Shown piece after piece: positions 19,953 to 32,339 of a stretch of DNA of 64,000 nt (within the stretch, counting starts at the first letter, position 1; each line of letters starts with the position of its first letter). The position numbers and the translations under genes were made by a program. Origin of the DNA: a virus; IMG/VR virus record IMGVR_UViG_3300042197_002234, positions 96,001 to 160,000 of that record; one strand, given 5' to 3'. The notes beneath the pieces were generated by a model. It saw nothing but the letters and a program-made list of their open reading frames with translations, ran no database searches and was not told where the DNA came from.

Positions 19953-20096
19953 TTTTTCCTTATTTTAATTTTTATGTTTATTGAACCCCACTTCGTTGGT
20001 AGTTAGCCAACTCAACTGTTACAAGAACAGGTGGACCTCATCAACAAGGTTTCAAGGATAAATATAGTAGTATCTGTTTTTTTTGTAAATGTTTTT

Positions 20097-20939
20097 TTAA
20101 TTTGTAGTACAATTAACAAATTCGTATCCATTACTTGTTTTTCTCCAAACAATAAATACAAGTTCAATTTTACTCAAATCCCAATTGGAATTATAATCAA
20201 TAACACGGGACCAATGGTACACCTCACCACTTGACAAATTGTTAAAAATTTCTTCACCGAAAGCTCCTGATGTGGTTGCGGATTTAGCCAATACGTGGTG
20301 ATGAATGTGGGGATTTTGAGAACTACCATTTTGAGATGCCGTAATCTCTTTATGTAAAAATAATGCAGACATGGTATATACACCTGATAAATTTTCAAAG
20401 GATTTAATATACACATTAACATTTAATTTACCAGCGTTTTTACCCGCACCTTGGGTTATGTGACTACCAATAGATAATTTTGGCGTTTGACTATTTTTAT
20501 TTGTTATTTCACCTGGTATTCCTGAAGTACTTGTACCTACAAAATTGTCATTGACAAAGAAATTAGGCGTGCCTGTATACTGCCATTTTGTAGAAAATTC
20601 ATCAACCAAAGGACCGTTGTCAGGTGTGGTTAACCCATCGTTAATTTGTAAAGACATTGCCAACACATTACCTTTATGGTTGTTATATAATTCCTCAAAT
20701 CTAGTGACACCCCATCCACCACAAGGACCACACCAAGTTGCGGTAAATTTACCAAAAATGGAGTTTTGTGTACTATCAACATACACACAAGACCCGTCAT
20801 TTATAATCGCATTTGGGTTATAATTAACCGATTTTGAATCGGTGCATCCTTTAATTGCCGAATCATCATCAACCAATAATGTTGGTTCTTGACAACTAGC
20901 CAATATAAAGAATAATAAAAATAATAAGTAGTTTTTCAT
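20097..20939 (-). CDS. Omp28-like lipoprotein (thioredoxin fold plus Omp28 domain)
   Basis: Lipobox ILASC; GCTD..NYNP..DGSC; TATWCGPC; GTPNFFVN; HHHVL. Confidence 0.7.
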   Translation of the reverse strand: MKNYLLFLLFFILASCQEPTLLVDDDSAIKGCTDSKSVNYNPNAIINDGSCVYVDSTQNSIFGKFTATWCGPCGGWGVTRFEELYNNHKGNVLAMSLQINDGLTTPDNGPLVDEFSTKWQYTGTPNFFVNDNFVGTSTSGIPGEITNKNSQTPKLSIGSHITQGAGKNAGKLNVNVYIKSFENLSGVYTMSALFLHKEITASQNGSSQNPHIHHHVLAKSATTSGAFGEEIFNNLSSGEVYHWSRVIDYNSNWDLSKIELVFIVWRKTSNGYEFVNCTTN

Positions 20940-21006
20940 AATTAATTTTGAAATATTGTATAGATTATATATACATAAATATAATAATTTTTACTTTAAT
21001 TTAAAG

Positions 21007-21504
21007 TTATTTTATTTCAAACGCACAACGGACAACACGACGTTTTTTAATTGCATCTTCAGTGTTACCAATAACAACACCATCTTTAATGGTAAAAGCG
21101 TGACCACGAACAAGAATGAAAAAAGTACCTTTAGGATTTTGTTTTATAAAAGTACCAACGGTCATTTCACGTTTAATTTTTTGACCTTTAACTTTAACTT
21201 CATAAACCAAAGAATTTGCCATCCAATTATTAGTACGATTACCAACTGTATACACACGTTTACCGTTAACTTCAGTATTATTGTCAGACATATTAACCAA
21301 TTTTGATGAGGTCATAAACGTACCTTTTCTTGGTTTTCTTTTAAAATGTTCGGCAACATATTGGTGAGCAAAATCATAGTCAACTTCAAATGACGAGGCA
21401 AAAGCTCTAACAACACAATCATTTGTTTCACCTTTAGCGATTGAGGATTCAAAATATCCTTTAATAGCTTCGTATCTGTTGCAATATGGGAGTCTGTCAT
21501 TCAT
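21007..21504 (-). CDS. Hypothetical protein (DCVVRA..HAF papain-like signature)
   Basis: Start MNDRLP after a TATCTTTG promoter at 21509-21516. Confidence 0.6.
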   Translation of the reverse strand: MNDRLPYCNRYEAIKGYFESSIAKGETNDCVVRAFASSFEVDYDFAHQYVAEHFKRKPRKGTFMTSSKLVNMSDNNTEVNGKRVYTVGNRTNNWMANSLVYEVKVKGQKIKREMTVGTFIKQNPKGTFFILVRGHAFTIKDGVVIGNTEDAIKKRRVVRCAFEIK

Positions 21505-21555
21505 AATACAAAGATACAAAAAAAATCTGAACCAAAAAAATATTGGTAAAAAAAG

Positions 21556-21629
21556 TGGACCCTGCAGGGCTTGAACCTGCGACCCCTGCATTATGAGTGC
21601 AACGCTCTAACCATCTGAGCTAAGAGTCC
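21556..21629 (-). tRNA. tRNA-CAT, probably Ile2 (lysidine type) or elongator Met
   Basis: Cloverleaf GGACTCT/AGGGTCC-A, loop CT-CAT-AA. Confidence 0.85.
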
Positions 21630-21819
21630 TAAAAATAAAAAATGATGTGGGGTATTCCTATTTAGTTTAAATTAACCAGTAGTCTGTTAATGTACACTTG
21701 TTGGTTTTACATCCCCACACCAATAACACACTCATAAGCATTCTACTTCCAGCTCCGAGAAATCGTATCTAACTTAGCCCATCTCACCGCTGTATGGGTA
21801 CTTAAGTTTATGTGTTTTG

Positions 21820-21891
21820 TAGCCCCTACGGGAATCGAACCCGTCTTTTTAGGATGAAAACCTAATGTCCTAACCGATAGACGAAAGGGCC
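21820..21891 (-). tRNA. tRNA-Glu(TTC)
   Basis: Cloverleaf, TTAGG-TT-TTC-AT-CCTAA. Confidence 0.9.
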
Positions 21892-22427
21892 ATAAATAAA
21901 AGGTGTTGAATCATCCCTACGCCATTATAGGAACACCTTTTGTTTTAATATTTGGCGAATTAATATTCCTACCTATATTCCCAAGATTCGTCAGAACATA
22001 GTAACCATCCAAGGTAGGCCTATACTATTACACTCCGTCCATATTTACTCACCTAATCAGATTAGTCATAGGTTTTTCAGATACAGCGTTCAGTGCTACC
22101 CTCAGGACATCTTCACCCTACCCCATAGTTACGTGGTGGTCTCACTCGGAAGAAGAGTGTGTATTGTAGAATTGTCCAGTATTTCTACAACTTGTGGATT
22201 GTATTATGACTAATTAAAGCCCCTAACCCCCTTAATCCATAATGGGGAACTCTTGTTTTAAAGATTCCAACATACCTGAAAGAACTTCCCCTTCTCAGTG
22301 AACACCGTTTATAAGGTGTTATATGTTTTTCACTTTGTGTGTATCTATCCCCCATAGCCCCAAAGACTTCTAGTCGGGGTTCACACACCATAACAGTCGA
22401 GTACTACTGTTAATCGTGGGGTCATTT

Positions 22428-22519
22428 GCTGATTAAAGGGAATCGAACCCAATCCTCCGACCCCGTTTACCCCTATGAGGGGGCCACTAGGGTCAGTATG
22501 CCCATTACATCATAACCAA
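22428..22519 (-). ncRNA. tRNA-like RNA with an extended anticodon arm (92 nt)
   Basis: Acceptor TTGGTTA/TAATCAG, D-arm ATGT/GCAT, TTCGATT T-loop; arm CTGACCC..GCCCC-TCATA-GGGGT..GGGTCGG. Confidence 0.6.
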
Positions 22520-22568
22520 TCGTCAGTTTCGAACCTGACAGTTCAAGGTTAATTACTCCTTGAGTTTG

Positions 22569-22646
22569 TTGCGATTTGTGGACTCGAACCACACAGGGGG
22601 TGCGACCCAACTCGGTTCATGAGACCGACCTTACACCTGTATCGCA
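22569..22646 (-). tRNA. Atypical tRNA-CAT with a truncated D-arm and long variable arm
   Basis: TGCGAT/ATCGCA acceptor, TCGGT-CTCATGA-ACCGA, TGTGG-TTCGAGT-CCACA. Confidence 0.55.
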
Positions 22647-22651
22647 GTTTT

Positions 22652-22736
22652 TGGTACTCGGAGCGGGACTCGAACCCGCACGGACAATGTCCAGCAGATT
22701 TTAAGTCTGCCTTGGCTACCTTTACAACACCCGAGC
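22652..22736 (-). tRNA. tRNA-Leu(TAA), CCA encoded
   Basis: GCAGA-CT-TAA-AA-TCTGC, long variable arm. Confidence 0.9.
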
Positions 22737-22808
22737 GTTTATTTCAAAGAACACTACAAAGATAAAGAACAAATTTCATATGAACAATACCTTTATAATT
22801 TTTTTTTG

Positions 22809-22912
22809 TCCACTCTGTTGGATTCGAACCAACTTACTCACTCTATATTCGGATACTGCAGTATCAGGCGATATAGAGGTCATCGTGTTTTACCACATAA
22901 CACTAAGAGTGA
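22809..22912 (-). ncRNA. tRNA-like RNA with an extended anticodon arm (104 nt)
   Basis: Acceptor TCACTCT/AGAGTGG-A, D-stem GTGT/ACAC, T-arm GTTGG-TTCGAAT-CCAAC; arm CTCTATAT..GATAC-TGCA-GTATC..ATATAGAG. Confidence 0.65.
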
Positions 22913-22917
22913 ATTTG

Positions 22918-22991
22918 TAGTCGGGGTGGGAATTGAACCCACGACCTTGATGATATAAGCATCCTGCTCTCGACCCCTGAGCTACCCGACC
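22918..22991 (-). tRNA. tRNA-Ile(TAT)
   Basis: Cloverleaf, GATG-CT-TAT-AT-CATC. Confidence 0.85.
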
Positions 22992-23207
22992 AAATGCCCC
23001 CACCCTGAGATTCCAGGTGAGTAGATATATCGGTTTTCTTTCTTTCAATAAACCTGTGGGTCTTACCCTCTTAAAATTAGTCAACACTACTGGGAGGGAT
23101 TGTGTCGGTTCCCTTTGTTCCCACGATGTCCCACTCGCGCCGTAGACATTCTGCGGAATCATTCTTAAAGTCTTGATTCGAAGACTCTGAGTATCTCTTA
23201 CTCATTG

Positions 23208-23279
23208 AGCTTCCACCCAGGGTCGAACTGGGGACTACTGATTACAAGTCAGTTATTTTACCTGCTAAACTACAGAAGC
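23208..23279 (-). tRNA. tRNA-Thr(TGT)
   Basis: ACTGA-CT-TGT-AA-TCAGT. Confidence 0.9.
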
Positions 23280-23289
23280 TTATTTATCG

Positions 23290-23436
23290 TATCTCCGATG
23301 GGAATCGAACCCACCTTGTAAATTACTTGTCAATTGCTCTGACTTATCTCTACAAACTAGTATAAGTAGTGTTAGGCCAATTAACCATCATTTACCCACT
23401 CACTGTTTTTGGTGCGACCTCAACAGATACGGAGAT
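23290..23436 (-). ncRNA. Giant tRNA-like RNA (147 nt)
   Basis: Perfect acceptor ATCTCCG/CGGAGAT-A, T-arm GTGGG-TTCGATT-CCCAT, enlarged D-like hairpin and ~75 nt irregular hairpin in the anticodon position. Confidence 0.6.
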
Positions 23437-23442
23437 GTTTTG

Positions 23443-23522
23443 TACCGAAGGAGAGACTCGAACTCTCACGCCATATGCAGATGCTTCTAAAACATCCGTG
23501 TCTACCATTCCACCACTTCGGC
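23443..23522 (-). tRNA. tRNA-Leu(TAG)
   Basis: GATGT-TT-TAG-AA-GCATC. Confidence 0.9.
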
Positions 23523-23633
23523 AATTTGTGGGTAGGGTCCTCCCACATTAGACTTAAGGTTTCGGATTCTTTAAAGACAATTCCTAAATGTCAACCGCCC
23601 GCATGTCCTTCACCTTAAAGCGGGAGCCCCTTA

Positions 23634-23709
23634 TGGAGCGAGAGACGAGATTTGAACTCGCGACCCCAACCTTGGCAAGGTTGTGCTCTACCAACTGAGC
23701 TACTCCCGC
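23634..23709 (-). tRNA. tRNA-Gly(GCC), CCA encoded
   Basis: AACCT-T-GCC-AA-GGTT cloverleaf. Confidence 0.92.
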
Positions 23710-23917
23710 AATTAAAAGAAACTTTCCTTCTACGCTCACCGTAGTTTTGGATTTTACTGATGGTTGGTTCCCCATCACCTGTTATGAGTGCACCATAGAG
23801 CAGGGTCCATCACAGAGTCCTTCGGGTCATGTACCTTCGTTATAGTTGCGACCTATTTGAAGCCGAAGTACCTTTCAACGGTGCTAATCCGTCTTCTGTA
23901 AGGAAAGGTTCTTTTTG

Positions 23918-23990
23918 AGCAGGTGGAGGTAATCGAAACCTCATCTTCAGAGTGGAAATCTGACATAATATGCCATTATACGACACCTGC
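23918..23990 (-). tRNA. tRNA-Gly(TCC)
   Basis: TCAGA-TT-TCC-AC-TCTGA. Confidence 0.88.
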
Positions 23991-24085
23991 GTATTCGAGT
24001 CAGAGTAGTCACGGCCACCTCTGTTCCTTCTGACTCTTATTATAACCGTGGCAAAATGTGGCTCGACCCAAGTTATAATCATTAG

Positions 24086-24160
24086 TTGCGGGGGTAGGAT
24101 TCGAACCTACGTCATTCGGCTTATGAGACCGAGCTGGAACCAACTCCAGTCCACCCCGCC
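24086..24160 (-). tRNA. tRNA-Met(CAT), initiator-like
   Basis: 1:72 mismatch (G.A), TCGGT-CTCATAA-GCCGA. Confidence 0.85.
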
Positions 24161-24165
24161 ATTTG

Positions 24166-24237
24166 CGGTCCGTGCGGGAGTCGAACCCGCCACACTGCCG
24201 TGACAGGGCAGCATTATAGCCGATTAACTAACGGACC
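24166..24237 (-). tRNA. tRNA-Asp(GTC)
   Basis: CTGCC-CT-GTC-AC-GGCAG. Confidence 0.92.
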
Positions 24238-24243
24238 TAATTG

Positions 24244-24318
24244 TGGAGACAGTGGGAATTGAACCCACCACACTTTCCTTGCAAGGGAAAATCGCCAAGC
24301 CTTGGTACATGTGTCCCC
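24244..24318 (-). tRNA. tRNA-Ala(TGC)
   Basis: G3-U70, TTTCC-CT-TGC-AA-GGAAA. Confidence 0.9.
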
Positions 24319-24411
24319 ATTTTTTTTTCTTCACCAATATGTCAAAGAACCTTTATCTTTTTAACAACACTACAAAGTTACAAAAGAAATTTTAAAAAAA
24401 CAACATCCTTG

Positions 24412-24451
24412 AAAAACAAAAAACCCACCTTTTTATGGGTGGGTTTGGTAT
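24412..24451 (-). terminator. Attenuator terminator of tRNA leader 1
   Basis: AAACCCACC-CATAAAAA-GGTGGGTTT-TTTGTTTTT. Confidence 0.85.
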
Positions 24452-24471
24452 TTCATAGTGTTAGTTTAAAA

Positions 24472-24543
24472 TCATACCATACCCACCTGAGTCAATCCTA
24501 TTGCTTCAGTTGTGCCTAAAAGTATGATATCTAAATTTCTCAT
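24472..24543 (-). CDS. Leader peptide 1 (MRNLDIILLGTTEAIGLTQVGMV*) of a putative tRNA-operon attenuator
   Basis: A-rich initiation context; the last codons GGTGGGTATGGTAT pair 13/14 with ATACCAAACCCACC in the terminator 5' arm. Confidence 0.75.
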   Translation of the reverse strand: MRNLDIILLGTTEAIGLTQVGMV

Positions 24544-24616
24544 TTTTTGCGTTATTGTTTTTTCTTAAATATACCCATTTTTAAAAAAGTATCAATATTA
24601 AGTTTAAAAATACCGA

Positions 24617-24811
24617 TTATTTTTTTGCTTCGGTAATTTTTTCTTTAAACTCAAACCTAATTGTATCACCAACACTATACTTTCGATTGGTACCAATAAT
24701 ACCCGTTTCTAAATGATTTTCAGCGTTTTTTACCTCATAGGTATAGGTTCCGTTAACATCAATGTCACAACAAAGAACCAAAAAAAGTTTAATAATTACA
24801 ATCTCTTTCAT
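24617..24811 (-). CDS. Small hypothetical protein with a hydrophobic N-terminus
   Basis: Start MKEIVIIKLFLVLCC. Confidence 0.5.
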   Translation of the reverse strand: MKEIVIIKLFLVLCCDIDVNGTYTYEVKNAENHLETGIIGTNRKYSVGDTIRFEFKEKITEAKK

Positions 24812-24815
24812 ATGA

Positions 24816-25283
24816 TTAATTTTTAGTAAATGATTTATCTGCCCAAGTTTTAGCACCCATACGCTCCCAAATTTGGATATCACACATTTCAGGGAAAGAA
24901 GTTCTCATGTCACCAACAGTCAACACTTCCAAGAACCCTTTGTCAATACCAAACCACTTTCCGCTCTTGGTGGTGTATACGTTCATCCAATGACCGTACT
25001 CATTTTTAACCTGAATGTTAACCAAGGCGTTTTTCTTGAATCCAGCGATTACGTTTTTAGGGTAATCAGTTGTGTCACTCATTGTAATGAAACCAGCCTT
25101 ACATTTTACTGCCACACGAAACTCATATTTTTTATCAGTGTCTTTAATGTGGTTTGACACCATTACGTTTATTAATTTGTCTTTGATTCGAGTTTTGAAT
25201 GAACCGAAGAATACATCTCCAGCCATTGTTCCTACAGTTTCTACGATAATTGAGCTTGGGGTGTTTGTGTTGGTATTTGTCAT
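24816..25283 (-). CDS. Hypothetical protein
   Basis: Start MTNTNTN after a TATCTTTG promoter at 25305-25312. Confidence 0.65.
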   Translation of the reverse strand: MTNTNTNTPSSIIVETVGTMAGDVFFGSFKTRIKDKLINVMVSNHIKDTDKKYEFRVAVKCKAGFITMSDTTDYPKNVIAGFKKNALVNIQVKNEYGHWMNVYTTKSGKWFGIDKGFLEVLTVGDMRTSFPEMCDIQIWERMGAKTWADKSFTKN

Positions 25284-25342
25284 ATTATTTCCGATTTTGT
25301 TATACAAAGATACAACAAAATTTCAAACTACCAAAACTTTTT

Positions 25343-25804
25343 TTAAAAAAGATAAGAATGTCTGTATTGTAATGGAATTGCTAACCCAAAACCCCAATAT
25401 TTTTCATTAGACACACTATAAGCAATTGCTATATCCCATTGATTTCTTTTTTGAGTTATCATCTTTAATGGGTGAAATTTAACCCAAACTTCAGGTTTTA
25501 TTTCTTTATTGGTATTTGGTAATGTATTGAATTTAATACCCGTACCGATAACTAATCCATTTTTTAAAACACCATAATTAATTCCAAATCTGTTTAAATA
25601 AGGGCTTGGATTCATTTGTCCTATCGGTGCTGAAACCATCCACATATTGTAACCTCCTCCCGCATGAATACCAAACCCTTTGGTGTCCAAGTTTTCCATA
25701 GATAACATAAAACTTTGTTCACCAGGAAAATATGTAATACCTGAGTACTGACCCCACACTTTTGACGTAAAAAATAACGTCAATATAAAAATTATTTTTT
25801 TCAT
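25343..25804 (-). CDS. Secreted or outer-membrane beta-rich protein
   Basis: Signal peptide MKKIIFILTLFFTSKVWGQ; alternating aromatic beta-strand pattern. Confidence 0.6.
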   Translation of the reverse strand: MKKIIFILTLFFTSKVWGQYSGITYFPGEQSFMLSMENLDTKGFGIHAGGGYNMWMVSAPIGQMNPSPYLNRFGINYGVLKNGLVIGTGIKFNTLPNTNKEIKPEVWVKFHPLKMITQKRNQWDIAIAYSVSNEKYWGFGLAIPLQYRHSYLF

Positions 25805-25807
25805 TTG

Positions 25808-25893
25808 TGGAAGTGGTAGGATTCGAACCTACAAGTTTACCGCAAGGGACCTGTTTTACAGACAGGCGAGCACACCATTTGCTCAACACTTCC
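25808..25893 (-). tRNA. tRNA-Tyr(GTA)
   Basis: CCTGT-CT-GTA-AA-ACAGG, long variable arm. Confidence 0.92.
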
Positions 25894-26104
25894 AAGTTAG
25901 GAAAGAGGAAGATGGTTCAGTGGACATCCTCTTTTACGATTGGCGTTACTCAGGTGTATATCTCCAAACTCCGATGATACCGACCGATATACACTCTCAT
26001 GTCATAGGTATCACCATTCCCCAATCAACCTATAATTTTAAACTAACACCATGACTCCTTTCGACCTTGCACGAGTCGTATCATTCAACTCTGTGTTAGT
26101 TTTG

Positions 26105-26179
26105 CTCCCTCGACAGGATTCGAACCTGTGACCCAACGGTTAACAGCCGTTTGCTCTAAACCTACTGAGCTACGAAGGA
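26105..26179 (-). tRNA. tRNA-Asn(GTT)
   Basis: AACGG-CT-GTT-AA-CCGTT. Confidence 0.92.
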
Positions 26180-26184
26180 ATTTG

Positions 26185-26255
26185 CACGGATAGAAGGACT
26201 CGAACCTCCACCAACAGTTTTGGAGACTGGGATGCTACCATTACACCATATCCGT
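26185..26255 (-). tRNA. tRNA-Trp(CCA)
   Basis: CAGT-CT-CCA-AA-ACTG. Confidence 0.92.
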
Positions 26256-26262
26256 GTGTTTG

Positions 26263-26336
26263 AGGTCAGAGTCAGATTTGAACTGACGAATACTTGTTTT
26301 GCAGACAAGCCCCTTAAACCACTTGGGTATCTGACC
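26263..26336 (-). tRNA. tRNA-Cys(GCA)
   Basis: CTTGT-CT-GCA-AA-ACAAG, U73. Confidence 0.92.
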
Positions 26337-26393
26337 TTAGAGTGTAGTGGGGGGTACCTCCCCTGTGGTTACTACACATTTAACCCACTTTAG

Positions 26394-26468
26394 TGTCCCC
26401 GACAGGGCTCGAACCTGTGACCCGTACATTAAAAGTGTACTGCTCTAATCCAACTGAGCTACGAAGAC
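26394..26468 (-). tRNA. tRNA-Lys(TTT)
   Basis: GTACA-CT-TTT-AA-TGTAC. Confidence 0.92.
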
Positions 26469-26531
26469 ATAATTTACGGCTCAAAGAATCTGAGTTTGTG
26501 GCTCAGAAACGCCCAATTTTGAGCCGTATTG

Positions 26532-26606
26532 TAGTCAAGGTTGGACTTGAACCAACGACCTTCTGCGTATCAGGCAGACGCTCTAAACCGACTGAGCTAC
26601 ATGACT
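26532..26606 (-). tRNA. tRNA-Ile(GAT)
   Basis: TCTGC-CT-GAT-AC-GCAGA. Confidence 0.92.
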
Positions 26607-26695
26607 ATGTTTTAGTTTTACTGAGCAAATATAACCATTTTTTGGTATATAACGCTCTGTTTTACTATTTTTTTTTTAATATTACCCGACATCAA

Positions 26696-27241
26696 TCATT
26701 TTGATTCAAACTTTTTAATAAAATTTTCACGATAATTGTCAATTATTTGTGAAATTTCACTTCTATACTTTGAGTGTATGTAGTGATGGTGTGTCGGACA
26801 TAACGGTATTAGGTTTTCTATTGAGTTATTAGTATGAACTTCATCGTAGTGGTGAACCGCAACTATTTTATTTTCACCACAAACAACACATTTGTGTTCA
26901 TGATGTTCAAAACAGATTCTACGATAACCATTTTTAGTTTCCGAATATTTACCCCAATTAGGGTTATTTTCACCACTTCTAAAATAAGTATTAGAACAAG
27001 AATGAGAACATGTAACTTTTTCATCTCTATTACCTTTTGAAGTTTCAAAAGATTTGTTACAAACAGGACATTCTTTAATTATTCTATTATAGATTAATTT
27101 TCTACTCCTCAAATGACTAATATCCACCCCATTTTGGTTTATGAATGATTCAAACTTTTTTCTATTTGACCCATTATCATATCCAAACATTTTTATTATC
27201 GCTTCTGACTTAGTTTTCGATGTTTTAATTATATCCTCCAT
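26696..27241 (-). CDS. HNH endonuclease inserted in the tRNA array
   Basis: CPVC..CSHSC zinc finger; CVVCG..VAVHH..H.NN..ENLIPLCPTHH HNH motif. Confidence 0.85.
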   Translation of the reverse strand: MEDIIKTSKTKSEAIIKMFGYDNGSNRKKFESFINQNGVDISHLRSRKLIYNRIIKECPVCNKSFETSKGNRDEKVTCSHSCSNTYFRSGENNPNWGKYSETKNGYRRICFEHHEHKCVVCGENKIVAVHHYDEVHTNNSIENLIPLCPTHHHYIHSKYRSEISQIIDNYRENFIKKFESK

Positions 27242-27304
27242 ACTAATAAATATCTAAATTTGTCGTAAAGTCAAATTTTAATCAAAACTTGTTTAAACGA
27301 TTAG

Positions 27305-27379
27305 TCGGGTAGACTGGACTCGAACCAGCACAATGTCCTCATCCCAAATGAGGCGACCTACCAATTGGTCTACTACCCG
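27305..27379 (-). tRNA. tRNA-Pro(TGG)
   Basis: CCTCA-TT-TGG-GA-TGAGG. Confidence 0.92.
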
Positions 27380-27389
27380 TTACTTTCAG

Positions 27390-27475
27390 CGGAAGGAGAG
27401 GGGCTCGAACCCTCGCGGCTTTGACACCCTAACAGTTTAGCAAACTGCCCCCTTCACCAACTTGGGTACCCTTCC
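27390..27475 (-). tRNA. tRNA-Ser(GCT)
   Basis: CAGT-TT-GCT-AA-ACTG, long variable arm, G73. Confidence 0.92.
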
Positions 27476-27512
27476 TTTTTTTCCGACCTAGCTCGGGAAC
27501 ACACATCGGATG

Positions 27513-27584
27513 TAGTTCTTGAAGGACTTGAACCCTCAATTCCTCGTCCGTAGCGAGACGTGTTATCCATTACACCAAAGAACT
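27513..27584 (-). tRNA. tRNA-Arg(ACG)
   Basis: CTCG-CT-ACG-GA-CGAG. Confidence 0.9.
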
Positions 27585-27588
27585 ATTT

Positions 27589-27678
27589 TGGCGGAAGCGA
27601 AGGGAATCGAACCCCCAACACGCTATTAACGTGCTACTTGTTTTCAAGACAAGCTCCTCGTCCATTCGGACCACTTCC
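27589..27678 (-). tRNA. tRNA-Ser(TGA), CCA encoded
   Basis: CTTGT-CT-TGA-AA-ACAAG, long variable arm. Confidence 0.92.
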
Positions 27679-27782
27679 ATTTTTTTAGGTCGTGACGAAC
27701 CCATCTGTCACTTCTTAATAGATTCTTGTAGTTTACTTACCGCGGTTCAATCCGTTACTAACAGGGAACCCAACCTATTTTG

Positions 27783-27854
27783 GGTGTAGGGACGGTACCG
27801 ACCCGTCTTATCTAGTTCCACAAACTAGTGCATCACCTTAATGCTTCAAACACC
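27783..27854 (-). tRNA. tRNA-His(GTG) with G-1 and an atypical T-loop
   Basis: CTAGT-TT-GTG-GA-ACTAG; G-1:C73; T-loop GTCGGTA; two acceptor mismatches. Confidence 0.8.
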
Positions 27855-28006
27855 ATGTAAAATTGATGGTAATTGGATTTATCAGGAATCCCGTCCACGA
27901 CTTCACACACCATTAGAGAGTTGAGTATTTCTACTTATCCTTAGTGTGTACCCTTGCGTCACGTCTCTCCACGCTTACCAATCTACGCCTTGTACCATCA
28001 ATTTTG

Positions 28007-28140
28007 TAGTCAGGGTCGGACTCGAACCGAATACCGTTCAAGACGGATTAGACAACCTTACGACTCCATAGAACCCACAAGTGTCTGGGACTATTGGTCT
28101 TGGGGACTCGGGTACCATCCCTCATTACGTCCACCTAACT
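28007..28140 (-). ncRNA. Giant tRNA-like RNA (134 nt)
   Basis: Acceptor AGTTAGG/CCTGACT-A, T-arm TCGG-TTCGAGT-CCGA, variable hairpin CCGT-CTTGA-ACGG, long arm tipped by CCCA..TGGG. Confidence 0.6.
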
Positions 28141-28215
28141 ATTTACCCCACTTCACCAGCTTAACGGACTGGCTGCCATGTGGGAGTGGGGGTTTCCTGT
28201 TATTTCAGGACTCCG

Positions 28216-28288
28216 TGGTGAGAGCTGGAATCGAACCAGCGGCACGTAGGGCTTCAACCTACTGCTCTACCTACTGAGCTATCACACC
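28216..28288 (-). tRNA. tRNA-Phe(GAA)
   Basis: GTAGG-TT-GAA-GC-CCTAC. Confidence 0.9.
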
Positions 28289-28449
28289 ATATAAAAAATG
28301 ATAGTGTTGGGATACCCGTCTCGTCCCAATCTTAACTGCTTAATCGTAGTTTTACGAGGCCTCGGCAGAGGGTGTTGAACACTGTGAACCTTACAACTAC
28401 TTTGTCGACTTTCATTGTAAGAGTGACCACTATCAATATTTTTTCTATT

Positions 28450-28525
28450 TCAAAGAACCCTTTTCGTCTGGGGTGTAGGTAACCCTATCAAACCTACACC
28501 CCCATCGTTTGTGAATACAAAGTTA
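28450..28525 (-). promoter_or_regulatory. Internal promoter, GC-rich hairpin and boxA inside tRNA operon 2
   Basis: TAACTTTG 28518-28525; GGGGTGTAGG..CCTACACCCC hairpin; GTTCTTTGA 28450-28458. Confidence 0.7.
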
Positions 28526-28569
28526 CAAAACATTTTTCTAACTAACAAGTACCCACTTATTTTTTTTTG

Positions 28570-28643
28570 TAGTCCCTGTCGGATTCGAACCAACGACCCT
28601 CTGCATGTAAGGCAGATGCTCTAACCAACTGAGCTAAAGGACT
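28570..28643 (-). tRNA. tRNA-Val(TAC)
   Basis: TCTGC-CT-TAC-AT-GCAGA. Confidence 0.92.
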
Positions 28644-28649
28644 ATTAAG

Positions 28650-28719
28650 TTGCGTGTTCGGGGTTCGAACCCGATTGACCTTCCTTATGAGAGAAAGTTC
28701 TTTTCCCCTAAGCCACGCA
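28650..28719 (-). tRNA. tRNA-Met(CAT) with a degenerate D-arm
   Basis: TGCGTG/CACGCA acceptor, TTCT-CTCATAA-GGAA, TCGGG-TTCGAAC-CCCGA. Confidence 0.65.
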
Positions 28720-28726
28720 ATTTATG

Positions 28727-28797
28727 TTACCCCCCAAGGATTCGAACCTCGATTAAGTGGACCAAAACCACTTGTCCTGCCATTAGACGAGAGGGTA
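28727..28797 (-). tRNA. tRNA-Gln(TTG)
   Basis: AGTGG-TT-TTG-GT-CCACT. Confidence 0.92.
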
Positions 28798-28828
28798 ATT
28801 TTAGGTTACCAATATGTCAAAGAACCCG

Positions 28829-28865
28829 TAAAACAAAAAACCCCGAACTTTTTATGGTTCGGGGT
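28829..28865 (-). terminator. Attenuator terminator of tRNA leader 2
   Basis: ACCCCGAAC-CATAAAAA-GTTCGGGGT-TTTTTGTTTT; boxA GTTCTTTGACATATTGGT follows at 28808-28825. Confidence 0.85.
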
Positions 28866-28897
28866 CTGTTATCTGTTTTACTTTCAAATATCCACAA

Positions 28898-28987
28898 TTA
28901 TTCCGAACCAATATTTTGCACACGTGGATACCAGCAATTTTTAAATTGCGACTTACTGATAATGACCATATGTTTATTAGTTCTCAT
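28898..28987 (-). CDS. Leader peptide 2 (MRTNKHMVIISKSQFKNCWYPRVQNIGSE*) of a putative tRNA-operon attenuator
   Basis: Directly after the TAACTTTG promoter (29011-29018); terminal codons TGGTTCGG are complementary to CCGAACCA in the terminator 5' arm/loop. Confidence 0.8.
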   Translation of the reverse strand: MRTNKHMVIISKSQFKNCWYPRVQNIGSE

Positions 28988-29047
28988 TGTATTTTAATTT
29001 ATAAGTATTACAAAGTTAAGAAAAATTTTAGACAAGTCAAACTTTTT

Positions 29048-29305
29048 TTAAAATCTTTTCGCAATTTTAAGAATTGTTTCCTCTTCTTCCCTAGTTAACA
29101 TCAACCTACTGTTAGATAATTTATCCAAAGCGATTCCCCATTCTAACTCCATAATGTTTTTTCGTTCTTCAGGAACATTGTAATAAGTTGGTTTGATATG
29201 ACCATCCTCGGTCAGAATATCAATCAATTCTTTAATTTCTCTTTTTGAACAAGCGTCAACAAAATCGCTTGGGTCTATGTCTACATAAGATTCAAATTCT
29301 GGCAT
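29048..29305 (-). CDS. Hypothetical protein
   Basis: 85 aa ORF. Confidence 0.65.
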   Translation of the reverse strand: MPEFESYVDIDPSDFVDACSKREIKELIDILTEDGHIKPTYYNVPEERKNIMELEWGIALDKLSNSRLMLTREEEETILKIAKRF

Positions 29306-29317
29306 ATTTTTTTAATA

Positions 29318-29551
29318 TTAAATGGTTTCGTCAATTTTATCTTGAATTTCAATAATTTTTGATTCAATGTATCTTTCTAATTTTTCTGACACATTAAGAT
29401 ATTGTTCCCTTAGTTTATGAAATTCTTCATCATTAATTTCTTTAAAAGAACTATAATGCTTGAAACAATAGTGGAATCCTTCCGCACCTATTCTGTATCG
29501 AACCATTTCAAAGTTCTCTAATTCTTCATGTAAATAATCTATATTACTCAT
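29318..29551 (-). CDS. Hypothetical protein
   Basis: 77 aa ORF overlapping the upstream gene. Confidence 0.65.
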   Translation of the reverse strand: MSNIDYLHEELENFEMVRYRIGAEGFHYCFKHYSSFKEINDEEFHKLREQYLNVSEKLERYIESKIIEIQDKIDETI

Positions 29552-30267
29552 TGGTTTAATTTTCTTTTACAGTTATTACAAAATTCTTTACGGTTAGTAC
29601 CATTAACTTTCATTAAACAGTCTTCGTCGTCGCAGTGATTTAGACCAAAGTTGTGACCTAATTCATGATTAGCAACATTCTGTAGGTTAGAAATTCTATA
29701 GTTACCGTTAATCTTTAATTGATAAGTACTAACAACAGCGGCGTCATGGTAAAATCTTGCGTAACCACTAATTAATTCAAGGTTATTCTCATGAGAACAC
29801 AAAGGATGATTAGTAACATATACGTGACGACCATCACCATCACCTTCTTCCAAGTTTAAAGTTTCAAGAGCATTAACATATTCACCGTTAATGAAATAAC
29901 GAGAGCTAGGGTTTGAATGTGGATTACCGATTTTAGTTTCTAAACCGTAAAAATTTTCGATTCCCTGGCAAACAGTCTCCAAATCTTCATGACTGTAATC
30001 ACCAAAACCATGAACATATACAATGTTTTTCGGTTTTTTAGTTTCAGATTTAACAACAGGTTTAGTTGATGGTTTATTTTTTACATCAACTGATTTACCA
30101 TATTTACCTAACTTATGTTCTTTGTCATAAGAATCCGCATATTCAGCAGCACTTTGTTTGAATTTATCAATACTATAGTTGTGTTTTTCGGCAAGTTCAA
30201 ATAAAGAACCAACAATTACTACAACAATACAAAGATTTACAATTGATTTTAATGGTGATGTTTTCAT
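29548..30267 (-). CDS. Membrane-anchored archaemetzincin (M54)-like zinc metalloprotease
   Basis: HELGHNFGLNHC..CLM..FCNNC; N-terminal TM segment. Confidence 0.85.
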   Translation of the reverse strand: MKTSPLKSIVNLCIVVVIVGSLFELAEKHNYSIDKFKQSAAEYADSYDKEHKLGKYGKSVDVKNKPSTKPVVKSETKKPKNIVYVHGFGDYSHEDLETVCQGIENFYGLETKIGNPHSNPSSRYFINGEYVNALETLNLEEGDGDGRHVYVTNHPLCSHENNLELISGYARFYHDAAVVSTYQLKINGNYRISNLQNVANHELGHNFGLNHCDDEDCLMKVNGTNRKEFCNNCKRKLNQ

Positions 30268-30321
30268 ACTACAAAGATACTAAAATTATTTTAACTACCA
30301 AAAAATAATGATAAATATTTG

Positions 30322-30393
30322 TAGGCCCACCAGGACTCGAACCTGGAATAGAAGCTTAGAAGGCTACTGTTATATCCCTTTAACTATGGGCCC
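30322..30393 (-). tRNA. tRNA-Arg(TCT)
   Basis: AGC-CT-TCT-AA-GCT anticodon arm, cloverleaf. Confidence 0.9.
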
Positions 30394-30402
30394 TAATCTA
30401 AA

Positions 30403-30552
30403 TTAGATTTGTTTGATGATGTACTTATGACCTGAATCTGAGTTTTTTTCAAAAAGAGACCTCATTTTTTCAGCCTCTTCTTGAGTTTCAAACTCCATTA
30501 CATCATCTTGACCGTCTAACAAAACAACAGGTAATTCAACGTTAGTTGTCAT
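30403..30552 (-). CDS. Small hypothetical protein
   Basis: MTTNVELPVVLLD..FETQEEAE; co-oriented with tRNA-Arg. Confidence 0.5.
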   Translation of the reverse strand: MTTNVELPVVLLDGQDDVMEFETQEEAEKMRSLFEKNSDSGHKYIIKQI

Positions 30553-30616
30553 CTGTTTAATCATTTTAACTATAATATACATAACACTGTAAAGGTAATA
30601 CAAAAAATTAAAATAA

Positions 30617-31705
30617 TCAAACTCTTTTTTTACCACCAAAAACATTAGGAGTTAAATTAGTTCTATTTGGTCTGACATTTTTTAGCATATTTGCTTGAGC
30701 TGATAATGAGTTTTTCTTTAATTCTAATGTTTCTTGTCTATTTTTGGGTTTGTTTTGTATTACAGGTTTAATATTTTTTTCTGTTGGTTTATATATAGAC
30801 CTATTATTGATAATTTGATTAACTAAATCGTATTTAACAGTATCTTTAATTTTATCTTTATTAGGATTAAATGGTTTATCATTTATTTTAAATAAAATAT
30901 CATTAAGTAAGTTTAAAGATGTTTGTTTATATTCTAAATCAGTATTATTTCTAAAATCATTATCATAATCATAAACTAATTTTAGTTTTTTATAGGGTGG
31001 TAAAGAATATATATATTTAGCAGTTCTACTTTGTAGTGTTGAATCTTTAATCGCCCCAGTTATTGAGTACGATTGATTTTCATGCCAATTATAAATGTAT
31101 GTAATTTCGTTAATAAATTTGTAATGTTCATTACCCGCCATTTCTAACATAGGTAAACCTATTCCAATATCTACTGCAGCTTTTAAATAATCATTTTCAA
31201 AAATTAAATCTTTTAAATTTATTGACCTAAATAAAAAAGCCCTATATGTTCTCATATGTGAAAAATTCCATGGAGTACTTCTAGCTTTGTCAGGATTTGC
31301 TTTACCATAATTCATACTTCTACCATTTGTATCAACCCATTTAGTACCGCAAATCCAAATATTTTGGTCAGTATAGATTTTATTGATTAACCCAAAAACA
31401 TTATTATCCAACAATTTATCATCACCATCAATTTCTATAATAACATCAGCCCATTCAATATCACCATTATTATAAATTATATCTATAAAGTTTTTAGCTT
31501 TGTATTTTTTTTGTTTATTTTTTATTAAAACAAATCTTTCATCACCATCTATTGTTTTTTCTGCGATAGAATACGAATTGTCGGTAGACATATCGTCAAC
31601 AAGATAACAAACAAAATTTGTAAAATATTGATTTTTTATTGAATTTATACAATCTGATATATATTTTTCAGAATTCCAAAATGTTGATACAACTACTAAT
31701 TTCAT
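30617..31705 (-). CDS. Glycosyltransferase family 2
   Basis: VVSTFWNSEKYI..LVDDMSTD..EIDGDD GT-A motifs. Confidence 0.85.
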   Translation of the reverse strand: MKLVVVSTFWNSEKYISDCINSIKNQYFTNFVCYLVDDMSTDNSYSIAEKTIDGDERFVLIKNKQKKYKAKNFIDIIYNNGDIEWADVIIEIDGDDKLLDNNVFGLINKIYTDQNIWICGTKWVDTNGRSMNYGKANPDKARSTPWNFSHMRTYRAFLFRSINLKDLIFENDYLKAAVDIGIGLPMLEMAGNEHYKFINEITYIYNWHENQSYSITGAIKDSTLQSRTAKYIYSLPPYKKLKLVYDYDNDFRNNTDLEYKQTSLNLLNDILFKINDKPFNPNKDKIKDTVKYDLVNQIINNRSIYKPTEKNIKPVIQNKPKNRQETLELKKNSLSAQANMLKNVRPNRTNLTPNVFGGKKRV

Positions 31706-31769
31706 AAAAAAGGGGTATGGTCTATTTATAAATAGGTTCACTAACTTATTTTTTAAAAAATATCATAAA

Positions 31770-32339
31770 ATGTCTGAAAACAAATACATAATTCCTTCGC
31801 CGAGAGTGTTTCATGTTATACCGTGGAATAGTGACAAAAATATTGGTAAGTCATATAATGAGATGATGGCGATGGTTAGAAGTAATGATTGGGTTTGTTT
31901 TTTAGATGGAGATGCGGTTCACACAACATCATTTTTTGGTGTTAGGATTGAGGAGGTAATTAAAAATAATCCTGATTATTCTTTATTTACTTGTTACACA
32001 AATAGGGTTGGGTGTGGTTATCAAATCGCACCTGGTGTTGACTCTAAATCTAACGACCAACAATACCATAGAAATTTTGGGGAGTTACTTTGGAATAACA
32101 ATGGTACCCAAGTTTTCGATGTAACAAAACAATCTCCAATGAGTGGGGTTTTACTACTTATTAAAAAATCATCATGGGAACAGGTTGGGGGGTTTAAGGA
32201 AGATAAAATGTTAACGGTGGATAATGATATTCACATAAAATTTACAAAAGCAGGTTTTAAATCGGGGCTAATGAAAGGTATATATGTACAACATTGGTAT
32301 AGAGGTAATAATCCTGGAAATAAATCACATTTATTATGA
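31770..32339 (+). CDS. GT-A fold glycosyltransferase-like protein
   Basis: WVCFLDGD, SGVLLLI..W..VGGF, VQHWY. Confidence 0.7.
   Translation: MSENKYIIPSPRVFHVIPWNSDKNIGKSYNEMMAMVRSNDWVCFLDGDAVHTTSFFGVRIEEVIKNNPDYSLFTCYTNRVGCGYQIAPGVDSKSNDQQYHRNFGELLWNNNGTQVFDVTKQSPMSGVLLLIKKSSWEQVGGFKEDKMLTVDNDIHIKFTKAGFKSGLMKGIYVQHWYRGNNPGNKSHLL

Follow-up and report, generated by a model that had tools for sequence, protein, structure and literature searches.

A predicted leader-peptide attenuator with codons matched to a downstream tRNA array in a giant phage of Bacteroidota-type hosts

Here we describe a regulatory unit standing in front of a transfer RNA (tRNA) gene array in a giant phage of Bacteroidota-type hosts, which probably works as a ribosome-mediated (leader-peptide) transcription attenuator controlling that array. 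The stretch of DNA analysed, referred to below as the window, comprises bases 96001-160000 (64,000 nucleotides, nt) of a 195.5-kb virus record in IMG/VR (IMGVR_UViG_3300042197_002234; CheckV completeness about 65%). From the reading of the sequence and the listing of its open reading frames (ORFs), all elements of the unit lie on the minus strand, in the order Bacteroidota-type promoter, 29-codon ORF with an 8-base-pair (bp) antiterminator in its last codons, intrinsic terminator, boxA and tRNA array (Table 1). The codons of the ORF match the tRNAs encoded downstream of it, and leaders found in front of tRNA arrays in many other phages match their own arrays in the same way, down to the individual isoacceptor.

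Results

Architecture of the leader

Four features by which leader-peptide attenuators are recognised are present: a short ORF precedes a terminator, the intrinsic terminator precedes the genes to be regulated, a mutually exclusive antiterminator can form, and the regulatory codons of the ORF match those genes. The terminator hairpin (28867-28829) has 11 pairs, six of them G-C, an 8-nt loop CATAAAAA and a T tract, with a folding energy of -17.0 kcal/mol; its stem begins 30 nt after the stop codon of the ORF, and the terminator stands 40 nt 5' of tRNA-Gln, the first gene of the array. The antiterminator segment UGGUUCGG, ending 3 nt before the stop codon, forms 8 bp with CCGAACCA in the 5' arm of the terminator. 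This duplex is worth -13.7 kcal/mol with its own terminator arm and a mean of -7.5 kcal/mol with the arms of other leader families, and the local fold of the antiterminator reaches -14.5 kcal/mol (z -3.2). An earlier note on this DNA had described these features, and its description of them proved right to the base, each lying on the minus strand where the note had placed it. The same note had seen no promoter between the terminator and tRNA-Gln, and the motif TAnnTTTG is indeed absent from the intervening 40 nt.

Codons of the leader and tRNAs of the array

The array reads Gln, Met-like, Val, Phe, His-like, Ser(UGA), Arg(ACG), Ser(GCU), Pro, Ile(GAU), Lys, Cys, Trp, Asn, Tyr. All 14 amino-acid types of this array are represented by one codon or more within codons 4-23 of the leader, as are both serine boxes. 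The codon-to-anticodon assignments made in the earlier note are all correct, with AGT for Ser-GCU, TCG for Ser-UGA, CGT for Arg-ACG, ATT and ATC for Ile-GAU, and the rest likewise. Its count of 23 cognate codons out of 23 holds if the degenerate Met-like and His-like tRNAs are included, and falls to 21 of 23 otherwise. Four leader codons lie off the array (AGA, ACT, GGT and GAA); GGT and GAA are fixed by the antiterminator, and region 1 of the leader (Table 1) may likewise constrain AGA and ACT.

Such a composition is rare. The window has 156 ATG-initiated ORFs with lengths of 24-36 codons, and this leader is the only one to contain all 14 amino-acid types; of 200,000 random 28-residue windows drawn from the long ORFs of the window, 76 (3.8e-4) do. 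A chance origin of the codon match is rejected by these counts together with the array permutations and the frame test given below.

Direct homologs of the leader

A degenerate pattern made from the leader located five further distinct phage contigs, giving six phages in all. The frame from ATG to stop is kept in all six, with length differences of whole codons, and synonymous changes are preferred (CAT/CAC, AGT/AGC, AAG/AAA, CCA/CCG/CCC, TGC/TGT, GTG/GTA/GTT). The nearest pairs have ratios of nonsynonymous to synonymous differences (pN/pS) of 0.11-0.26, and the pooled ratio is 0.52. The earlier note had held that frameshifted or compositionally unrelated homologs would speak against an attenuator, and what was found instead is this set of in-frame ORFs. 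Residues that occur only once in the leader (H, F, C, W, Y and P) are invariant among the six phages, and those present in several copies (K, N, S, I and V) shift position, which is the pattern that would be expected from selection for at least one codon per tRNA. The TAnnTTTG -7 box is also kept in all six, with variable middle bases, and the content of the tRNA array is the same in the homologous phages, its order being permuted in one of them (L120).

A search for cultured relatives with blastn against 50,697 phage records returned tRNA-level matches only and no isolate that could serve as a model. Two candidates were set aside: Chryseobacterium phage MA9V-1 has no tRNA genes, and Cellulophaga phi46:3 has a boxA-like stretch amid small ORFs and no tRNAs.

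A class of leaders matched to their own arrays

The wider class was collected from IMG/VR contigs located through the boxA 18-mer, so that composition played no part in the selection, and was scanned blindly. A G+C-rich hairpin with a T tract was first sought within the 300 nt preceding a tRNA, and ATG-initiated ORFs were then sought whose ends lie 12-45 nt 5' of that hairpin. The 81 units that resulted group into 26 clusters when the identity threshold is 50% and into 21 superfamilies when it is 30%. The peptides are unrelated between families except in composition and in an MK start.

Of the residues in a leader, a fraction of 0.645 is cognate to the array that follows it, and permuting the arrays among leaders gives 0.482 (26 clusters; z 8.3; 0 of 100,000 permutations). 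Leaving out the last six codons raises the observed fraction to 0.70. At the superfamily level the same comparison gives 0.635 against 0.471 (z 7.6), and the share of array amino-acid types that are found in the leader is 0.984 against 0.772 (z 6.2). The match belongs to the reading frame of the ORF, where it is 0.653, compared with 0.46-0.52 in the other five frames. It also extends to the choice of codon box: leucine is encoded by TTR and CTN codons in a ratio of 7:0 where only Leu-UAA is present, and 0:10 where only Leu-UAG is present (p 5e-5), with similar matching for arginine (p 1e-3) and isoleucine (p 2e-3) and a pooled odds ratio of 29 for Leu, Ser, Arg and Ile (p 7e-11). A function exercised by the peptide itself would not predict that codon boxes follow the isoacceptor.

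The ends of these ORFs are tied to their terminators as well. Pairing of the 3' end of the ORF with the 5' arm of a terminator is worth -15.0 kcal/mol for its own terminator and -8.35 kcal/mol for swapped ones (z -13; 0 of 20,000). In most cases the paired segment ends 1-10 nt short of the stop codon, and the gap between stop and terminator is 21-37 nt across the 26 families. If the sensing zone is defined as the codons at which a stalled ribosome leaves the antiterminator free in the folding model, cognate codons make up 72% of the modelled zone and 38% of the codons outside it (odds ratio 4.2, p 2.5e-14).

Individual leaders illustrate how the composition changes with the array. The leader at locus L037 includes MKNLFHTTTSSSTSTSSCDEDT and is followed by Ser, Ser, Thr, Cys, His, Thr, Ser, Glu and Asp tRNAs, and that in L091 includes MKLLNNIELNLRRLE and is followed by Glu, Asn, Leu, Arg, Met and Leu. 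Two published huge-phage genomes, located by terminator similarity and deposited as records without annotation, also carry units of this kind: in LR756501.1 (735 kb; locus L186, 203337-211372) a leader with SKHSKHFSSSSKWF precedes Trp, His, His, Phe, Lys and Ser, and in LR756504.1 (636 kb; locus L187, 397825-405858) a leader with KQDKQYQPQYD precedes Asp, Tyr, Tyr, Gln and Lys.

Folding of the nascent leader RNA

The nascent RNA was folded up to the terminator loop with a 28-nt ribosome footprint held single-stranded. With the ribosomal A site at codons 1-23, the predicted sequestration of the terminator 5' arm is about 0.70; it declines from 0.52 to 0.35 over codons 24-28, and the stop codon and the codon before it give 0.14 and 0.05, respectively. 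The earlier note had named such folding with ribosome footprints as a check, and the on/off behaviour that it predicted is seen in the model.

The minimum free energy (MFE) fold of the full leader (-50.5 kcal/mol; z -6.2 against shuffled sequences) has the terminator formed and regions 1 and 2 paired. The latter interaction, overlooked in the earlier note, is a 9-bp pairing of codons 2-5 (GAACUAAUA) with UAUUGGUUC, and gives the unit, in the model, the classical four regions of an attenuator. It forms in the nascent-RNA folds of all six homologs, with 53 of 54 alignment cells paired (98%) and no compensatory change, and the helix between antiterminator and terminator arm is 100% paired in the same six. 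On the strength of these folds we propose the pairing of region 1 with region 2 for this leader family only, not for the class.

A paralogous unit in the same genome

Searching the phage's own record with the leader region revealed a second copy of the terminator and a second boxA 18-mer upstream of tRNA-Ala (Table 1). This paralogous unit, unit 1, has its own leader ORF, and its array reads Ala, Asp, Met, Gly, Gly, Leu, Thr, Ile(UAU), Leu, Glu, Met. Its terminator shares the loop of the first terminator and differs from it in the arms, and its antiterminator GGUGGGU matches its own terminator at -17.4 kcal/mol. In the folding model the terminator arm of this unit is sequestered at 0.85 for codons 1-15 and at 0.01-0.04 near the stop codon. 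The two leader peptides of the phage are complementary in composition, as are their two arrays.

Within the second array, between tRNA-Gly(UCC) and tRNA-Gly(GCC), lies a match to the freshwater-1 RNA (Rfam RF02979; 23752-23814, minus strand; 76.3 bits, cut-off 72). Its location within a tRNA operon of a phage may hint at what this RNA does.

Promoters and boxA

A TAnnTTTG motif lies at most 80 nt 5' of the ATG in 13 of the 26 leader families, compared with 7% of random 80-nt windows. In seven of the 26, paralogous unit 1 included, a promoter motif also follows the terminator. Many leaders that have no TAnnTTTG are preceded by a second promoter-like class, in which TTGAYACTTTT is followed after about 12 nt by TATATTTA (24560-24595 of the window, minus strand; also in L063, L009 and L030); other leader families have AACTTTT and then GATATATA. 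This class may be a phage-specific promoter type.

More than 116 viral contigs contain the 18-mer GGTTCTTTGACATATTGG, which in most cases precedes a tRNA array. Exact copies were also found in 63 bacterial stretches, nearly all from Bacteroidota; in 17 of these loci the 18-mer follows tRNA-Ala, which in 15 of the 17 is itself preceded by tRNA-Ile. Ten bacterial loci were read for gene context with cmscan, and in the six that have a nameable downstream gene the 18-mer stands just before 23S ribosomal RNA (rRNA) or transfer-messenger RNA (tmRNA); it lies 30-50 nt 5' of 23S rRNA in the three rRNA loci examined (L124, L150 and L151). We label it boxA because it precedes 23S rRNA or tmRNA in Bacteroidota genomes, and its location before stable-RNA genes in the host lineage supports its reading as a predicted boxA. 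The distribution of this element, together with the TAnnTTTG promoters, likewise supports a bacterium of the Bacteroidota as the probable host. In Fodinibius genomes L132 and L138 (2535-2552 in L138) the 18-mer abuts the 5' end of tmRNA, which suggests that tmRNA transcription in those bacteria may be subject to Nus-type antitermination.

The tRNA array and its surroundings

Between tRNA-Val and tRNA-Phe lies a second set of transcription signals (Table 1), among them the internal promoter that the earlier note had placed at 28518. No such bypass is present in contig L094, where tRNA-Val and tRNA-Phe abut. The region between tRNA-Phe and the His-like tRNA (27854-28215, minus strand; about 360 nt) is G+C-rich and tRNA-fragment-like, and has no Rfam match at E <= 5; the gap at the same place is of similar length in L047 and measures 80 nt in L094. 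Further along, the array is interrupted on its own strand by an ORF of 181 amino acids (27241-26696, minus strand) that contains Cys/His motifs and matches HNH_2 weakly (17.2 bits, cut-off 21); this ORF is likely to be an insertion of the homing-endonuclease type.

About 1.3 kb upstream of the leader, right after an ORF of 80 amino acids, a lone tRNA-Arg(UCU) (30321-30393, minus strand) stands without a leader unit. AGA, the codon of this tRNA, follows the ATG in both leaders of the phage and in five of the six homologs of the leader described here. Between the lone tRNA-Arg and the leader, a protein of 239 amino acids (29548-30267, minus strand) has a C-terminal zinc-metallopeptidase motif (Peptidase_M54, 31.7 bits; Peptidase_M10, 27.7 bits).

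Table 1. Elements of the attenuator unit, its tRNA array and the paralogous unit, in window coordinates
Feature	Position	Strand	Sequence and detail	Basis
Promoter, Bacteroidota-type	29041-29038 and 29018-29011 (whole match 29041-29011)	-	-33 TTTG and -7 TAACTTTG; 23 nt 5' of ATG	pattern match
Leader ORF	28987-28898	-	29 codons and TAA, MRTNKHMVIISKSQFKNCWYPRVQNIGSE	ORF listing
Region 1, possible anti-antiterminator	28983-28975	-	GAACUAAUA, codons 2-5; pairs with UAUUGGUUC at 28913-28905	MFE fold
Region 2, antiterminator 5' strand	28910-28903	-	TGGTTCGG (DNA), UGGUUCGG (RNA), codons 26-29	complementary to CCGAACCA
Region 3, terminator 5' arm	28867-28855	-	AGACCCCGAAC at 28867-28857; antiterminator partner CCGAACCA at 28862-28855	hairpin and duplex pairing
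Region 4, terminator 3' arm	28848-28829	-	GTTCGGGGTTT at 28848-28838 and T tract	hairpin with T tract
boxA-like 18-mer	28826-28809	-	GGTTCTTTGACATATTGG	between attenuator and first tRNA
tRNA-Gln	28797-28726	-	first gene of the array	ARAGORN
tRNA array, Gln to Tyr	28797-25807	-		ARAGORN and Rfam
Internal bypass between tRNA-Val and tRNA-Phe	28525-28446	-	TAACTTTG at 28525-28518, G+C-rich hairpin without T tract, boxA-like GGTTCTTTGAAATA at 28459-28446	by eye
Paralogous unit	24543-24334	-	5' of Ala/Asp/Met/Gly/Leu/Thr/Ile/Glu array	search of own record with leader region
Paralog leader ORF	24543-24472	-	MRNLDIILLGTTEAIGLTQVGMV	ends in GGTGGGT
Paralog terminator	24446-24421	-	AACCCACC/GGTGGGTT, loop CATAAAAA shared with the first terminator	arms differ from the first terminator
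Paralog downstream promoter motif	24380-24373	-	TAACTTTG	after terminator
Paralog boxA	24351-24334	-		5' of tRNA-Ala

Discussion

A model for the switch

The earlier note had interpreted the leader as an attenuator, and this interpretation is supported by the comparative tests of frame conservation, match to the array, isoacceptor boxes and pairing with the own terminator, and by folding. From these sequence comparisons we infer that the ORF is translated and that its translation is coupled to transcription, in the direction set out here. Transcription would start from the TTTG/TAACTTTG promoter, and the 29-codon leader would be translated as RNA polymerase advances. Should the ribosome be delayed at any of codons 2-23, UGGUUCGG would be free at the time that the terminator 5' arm emerges, and would pair with CCGAACCA (regions 2 and 3), so that the terminator is blocked and the polymerase reads through. 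The polymerase would then cross boxA, where host Nus antitermination factors are probably recruited, and go on to tRNA-Gln, the Met-like tRNA, tRNA-Val and the rest of the array; the placement of boxA after the attenuator would make those polymerases that pass the checkpoint processive over 3 kb of untranslated RNA. With fast decoding the ribosome would arrive at the last codons or the stop codon and cover UGGUUCGG, allowing the terminator to form. In the complete absence of leader translation, region 2 would probably pair with codons 2-5 (GAACUAAUA), and transcription would again end. The net effect would be negative feedback, with the tRNA set being made when the supply of these decoders is short, and stopped when it is ample. 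As the time of transit through the leader is the sum of the dwell times over all its codons, the leader should integrate the supply of all the decoders that it samples.

We take the purpose of the unit to be feedback control of phage tRNA synthesis. The fuller model that we favour, with somewhat less assurance than we have in the attenuator as such, is one of closed-loop control. In it the leader would be a kinetic integrator of decoding speed over the very codons that its tRNAs read, by which the phage gauges the usable tRNA pool, including losses to anticodon nucleases and mismatch of codon usage, and tops it up on demand; such control would be widespread in Bacteroidota phages up to the largest known genome (735 kb), and these would be the first tRNA genes under leader-peptide attenuation. 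An inducible counter-defence against anticodon nucleases is possible as a conjecture, and nothing found here speaks for it specifically.

Evidence that weighs against the model

A number of observations tell against this account. The earlier note had counted 15 tRNAs; ARAGORN finds 13 of them, and the remaining two are degenerate. With 22.7 bits, the Met-like tRNA (anticodon CAU; 28719-28650) is under the Rfam cut-off of 29, and the His-like GUG tRNA (27853-27783), which reached 30.2 bits in one Rfam scan (cut-off 29) and was not recovered in a narrower one, has by eye two acceptor-stem mismatches and an odd T loop; at the matching positions relatives have a sound tRNA-Met and tRNA-His. Transcription from the internal promoter at 28525-28518 can supply 12 of the 15 tRNAs, namely tRNA-Phe and the 11 encoded after it, bypassing the switch. 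Most of the array tRNAs are sampled by just one or two leader codons, and therefore the sensitivity to any single tRNA may be low. Leaders do not track array differences among close relatives (4 wins, 5 losses and 17 ties), and therefore either the match is kept over long rather than short evolutionary times or the array calls are noisy.

The structural evidence has its own weak points. The antiterminator, whether taken as the duplex or as the local fold, is weaker than the terminator, and must therefore act kinetically. In several other families the terminator arm is not released at the stop codon in a simple thermodynamic model, and the class-wide signal for an anti-antiterminator, measured as pairing of the 5' part of the ORF with the antiterminator, is weak (-9.9 against -8.8 kcal/mol, z -2.6). 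Among the six homologs there are no double-sided compensatory changes in the helices, which are invariant rather than co-varying.

Other explanations

Some of these points would be at home in a different account, namely that the unit is a real translation-coupled attenuator which reports general translation capacity or the stage of infection, its diverse codons serving as an average message. The sampling of most tRNAs by one or two codons, the four off-array codons (AGA, ACT, GGT and GAA) and the keeping of the same leader by close relatives with different arrays all fit it. We nevertheless consider it unlikely, since an average message would not fit its own array better than the arrays of others, and would leave no account of why the Leu, Arg and Ile codon boxes fit the isoacceptor present, why cognate codons are concentrated in the sensing zone, or why the two leaders in one genome are compositionally complementary in the way that their arrays are. 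A yet more modest explanation holds that the terminator just ends an upstream protein-coding unit, that the small ORF is spurious or an unrelated conserved micro-protein, and that the tRNAs are transcribed from other promoters or by basal read-through. Protein genes do run on the same strand up to the terminator, the hairpin also reads on the plus strand as a terminator-like site, and promoter motifs lie after the terminator in paralogous unit 1 and in seven of the 26 families in all, as well as within the present array at 28525-28518. Against this stand the conserved promoter motif between the upstream gene and the ORF, peptide sequences with nothing but composition and the MK start in common between families, and two features that such an explanation leaves unexplained, the in-frame codon match to the downstream tRNAs and the copy of the 3' arm of the own terminator at the end of the ORF in at least 21 unrelated families; we regard it as quite improbable.

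The least probable of the explanations, to which we give hardly any weight, is an RNA-only switch akin to a T-box, in which tRNAs bind the triplets of the leader directly and no ribosome takes part. In its favour, each downstream anticodon has a complementary triplet in the leader, and an antiterminator/terminator pair is present, as in T-boxes. The signal, though, is bound to the frame from ATG to stop, with synonymous substitutions preferred and insertions and deletions of whole codons, and the stop codon keeps a fixed distance from the terminator. Rfam gives no match to a T-box or other riboswitch, with the T-box covariance model having no match at E <= 1 in 20000-32000 of the window, and no conserved scaffold is seen; we also know of no precedent for one RNA binding 14 or more different tRNAs.

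Relation to known attenuators

Enterobacterial leader-peptide attenuators include trpL, hisL, leuL and pheL, and among them are multivalent ones, the ilvGMEDA leader (Ile/Leu/Val) and the thr leader (Thr/Ile). The phage unit has in common with the ilvGMEDA and thr leaders a short ORF, mutually exclusive antiterminator and terminator hairpins, a stop codon just 5' of the terminator, a decision made by ribosome position, and the sensing of more than one amino acid. Unlike them it is phage-borne and targets tRNA genes rather than biosynthetic enzymes, so that the product would feed back directly on the sensor, and in place of runs of one regulatory codon, as many as 17 tRNA species are represented by 1-3 codons each, matched at the level of isoacceptors. 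In Escherichia coli the pheST operon, with its pheM leader, is an attenuator-controlled translation-apparatus gene system that responds to the level of charged tRNA. It shares with the phage unit leader-peptide attenuation of a gene of the translation apparatus, and differs in being bacterial, in having a synthetase as its target and in sensing one amino acid. By analogy, the logic of the phage unit appears most like that of the multivalent ilv and thr leaders, and its target most like that of the pheST leader. The Rfam models Thr_leader (RF00506) and Phe_leader (RF01859) were considered and rejected as matches, scoring 27.6 and 25.8 bits against a threshold of 55 and covering only terminator hairpins.

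T-boxes also sense the status of tRNA and use an antiterminator/terminator switch before translation-related genes; they bind one uncharged tRNA directly and need no ribosome, whereas the evidence for the phage unit points to a translated frame. For Bacteroidota, to which the host probably belongs, leader-peptide attenuation is suggested by the Bacteroid-trp leader of Rfam; there Trp codons lie upstream of trp genes and, unlike in the phage unit, no tRNA genes are involved. The phage 18-mer would correspond to the boxA of Nus antitermination in rRNA (rrn) operons, which it resembles in sequence, differing in its position after an attenuator and before phage tRNA arrays. What is new relative to known attenuators is the tRNA-gene target, the multiplexed design of one codon per tRNA with isoacceptor matching, and the phage setting. 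In the literature searched, about 8.4 million papers and preprints with the huge-phage paper included, there is no description of leader-peptide control of tRNA genes, which is not proof of absence.

Significance

The reason for the presence of tRNA genes in phages has been debated for fifty years, with proposals that these genes compensate for codon usage, replace tRNAs degraded by the host, or allow escape from anticodon nucleases. To our knowledge, almost nothing is known of how the expression of phage tRNA genes is controlled. The architecture of the unit offers a signature for annotating tRNA operons in uncultured phages, consisting of an ORF, a copy of the terminator arm, a terminator and a boxA, and the unit itself would be a compact, naturally occurring sensor of whether chosen tRNAs are available. 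If the model is true, leader-peptide attenuation would be extended from amino-acid metabolism to the decoding machinery itself, and the phage would monitor the speed of decoding and adjust its tRNA supply by feedback, which would favour demand-driven explanations of phage tRNA genes in a form that can be tested with simple reporters.

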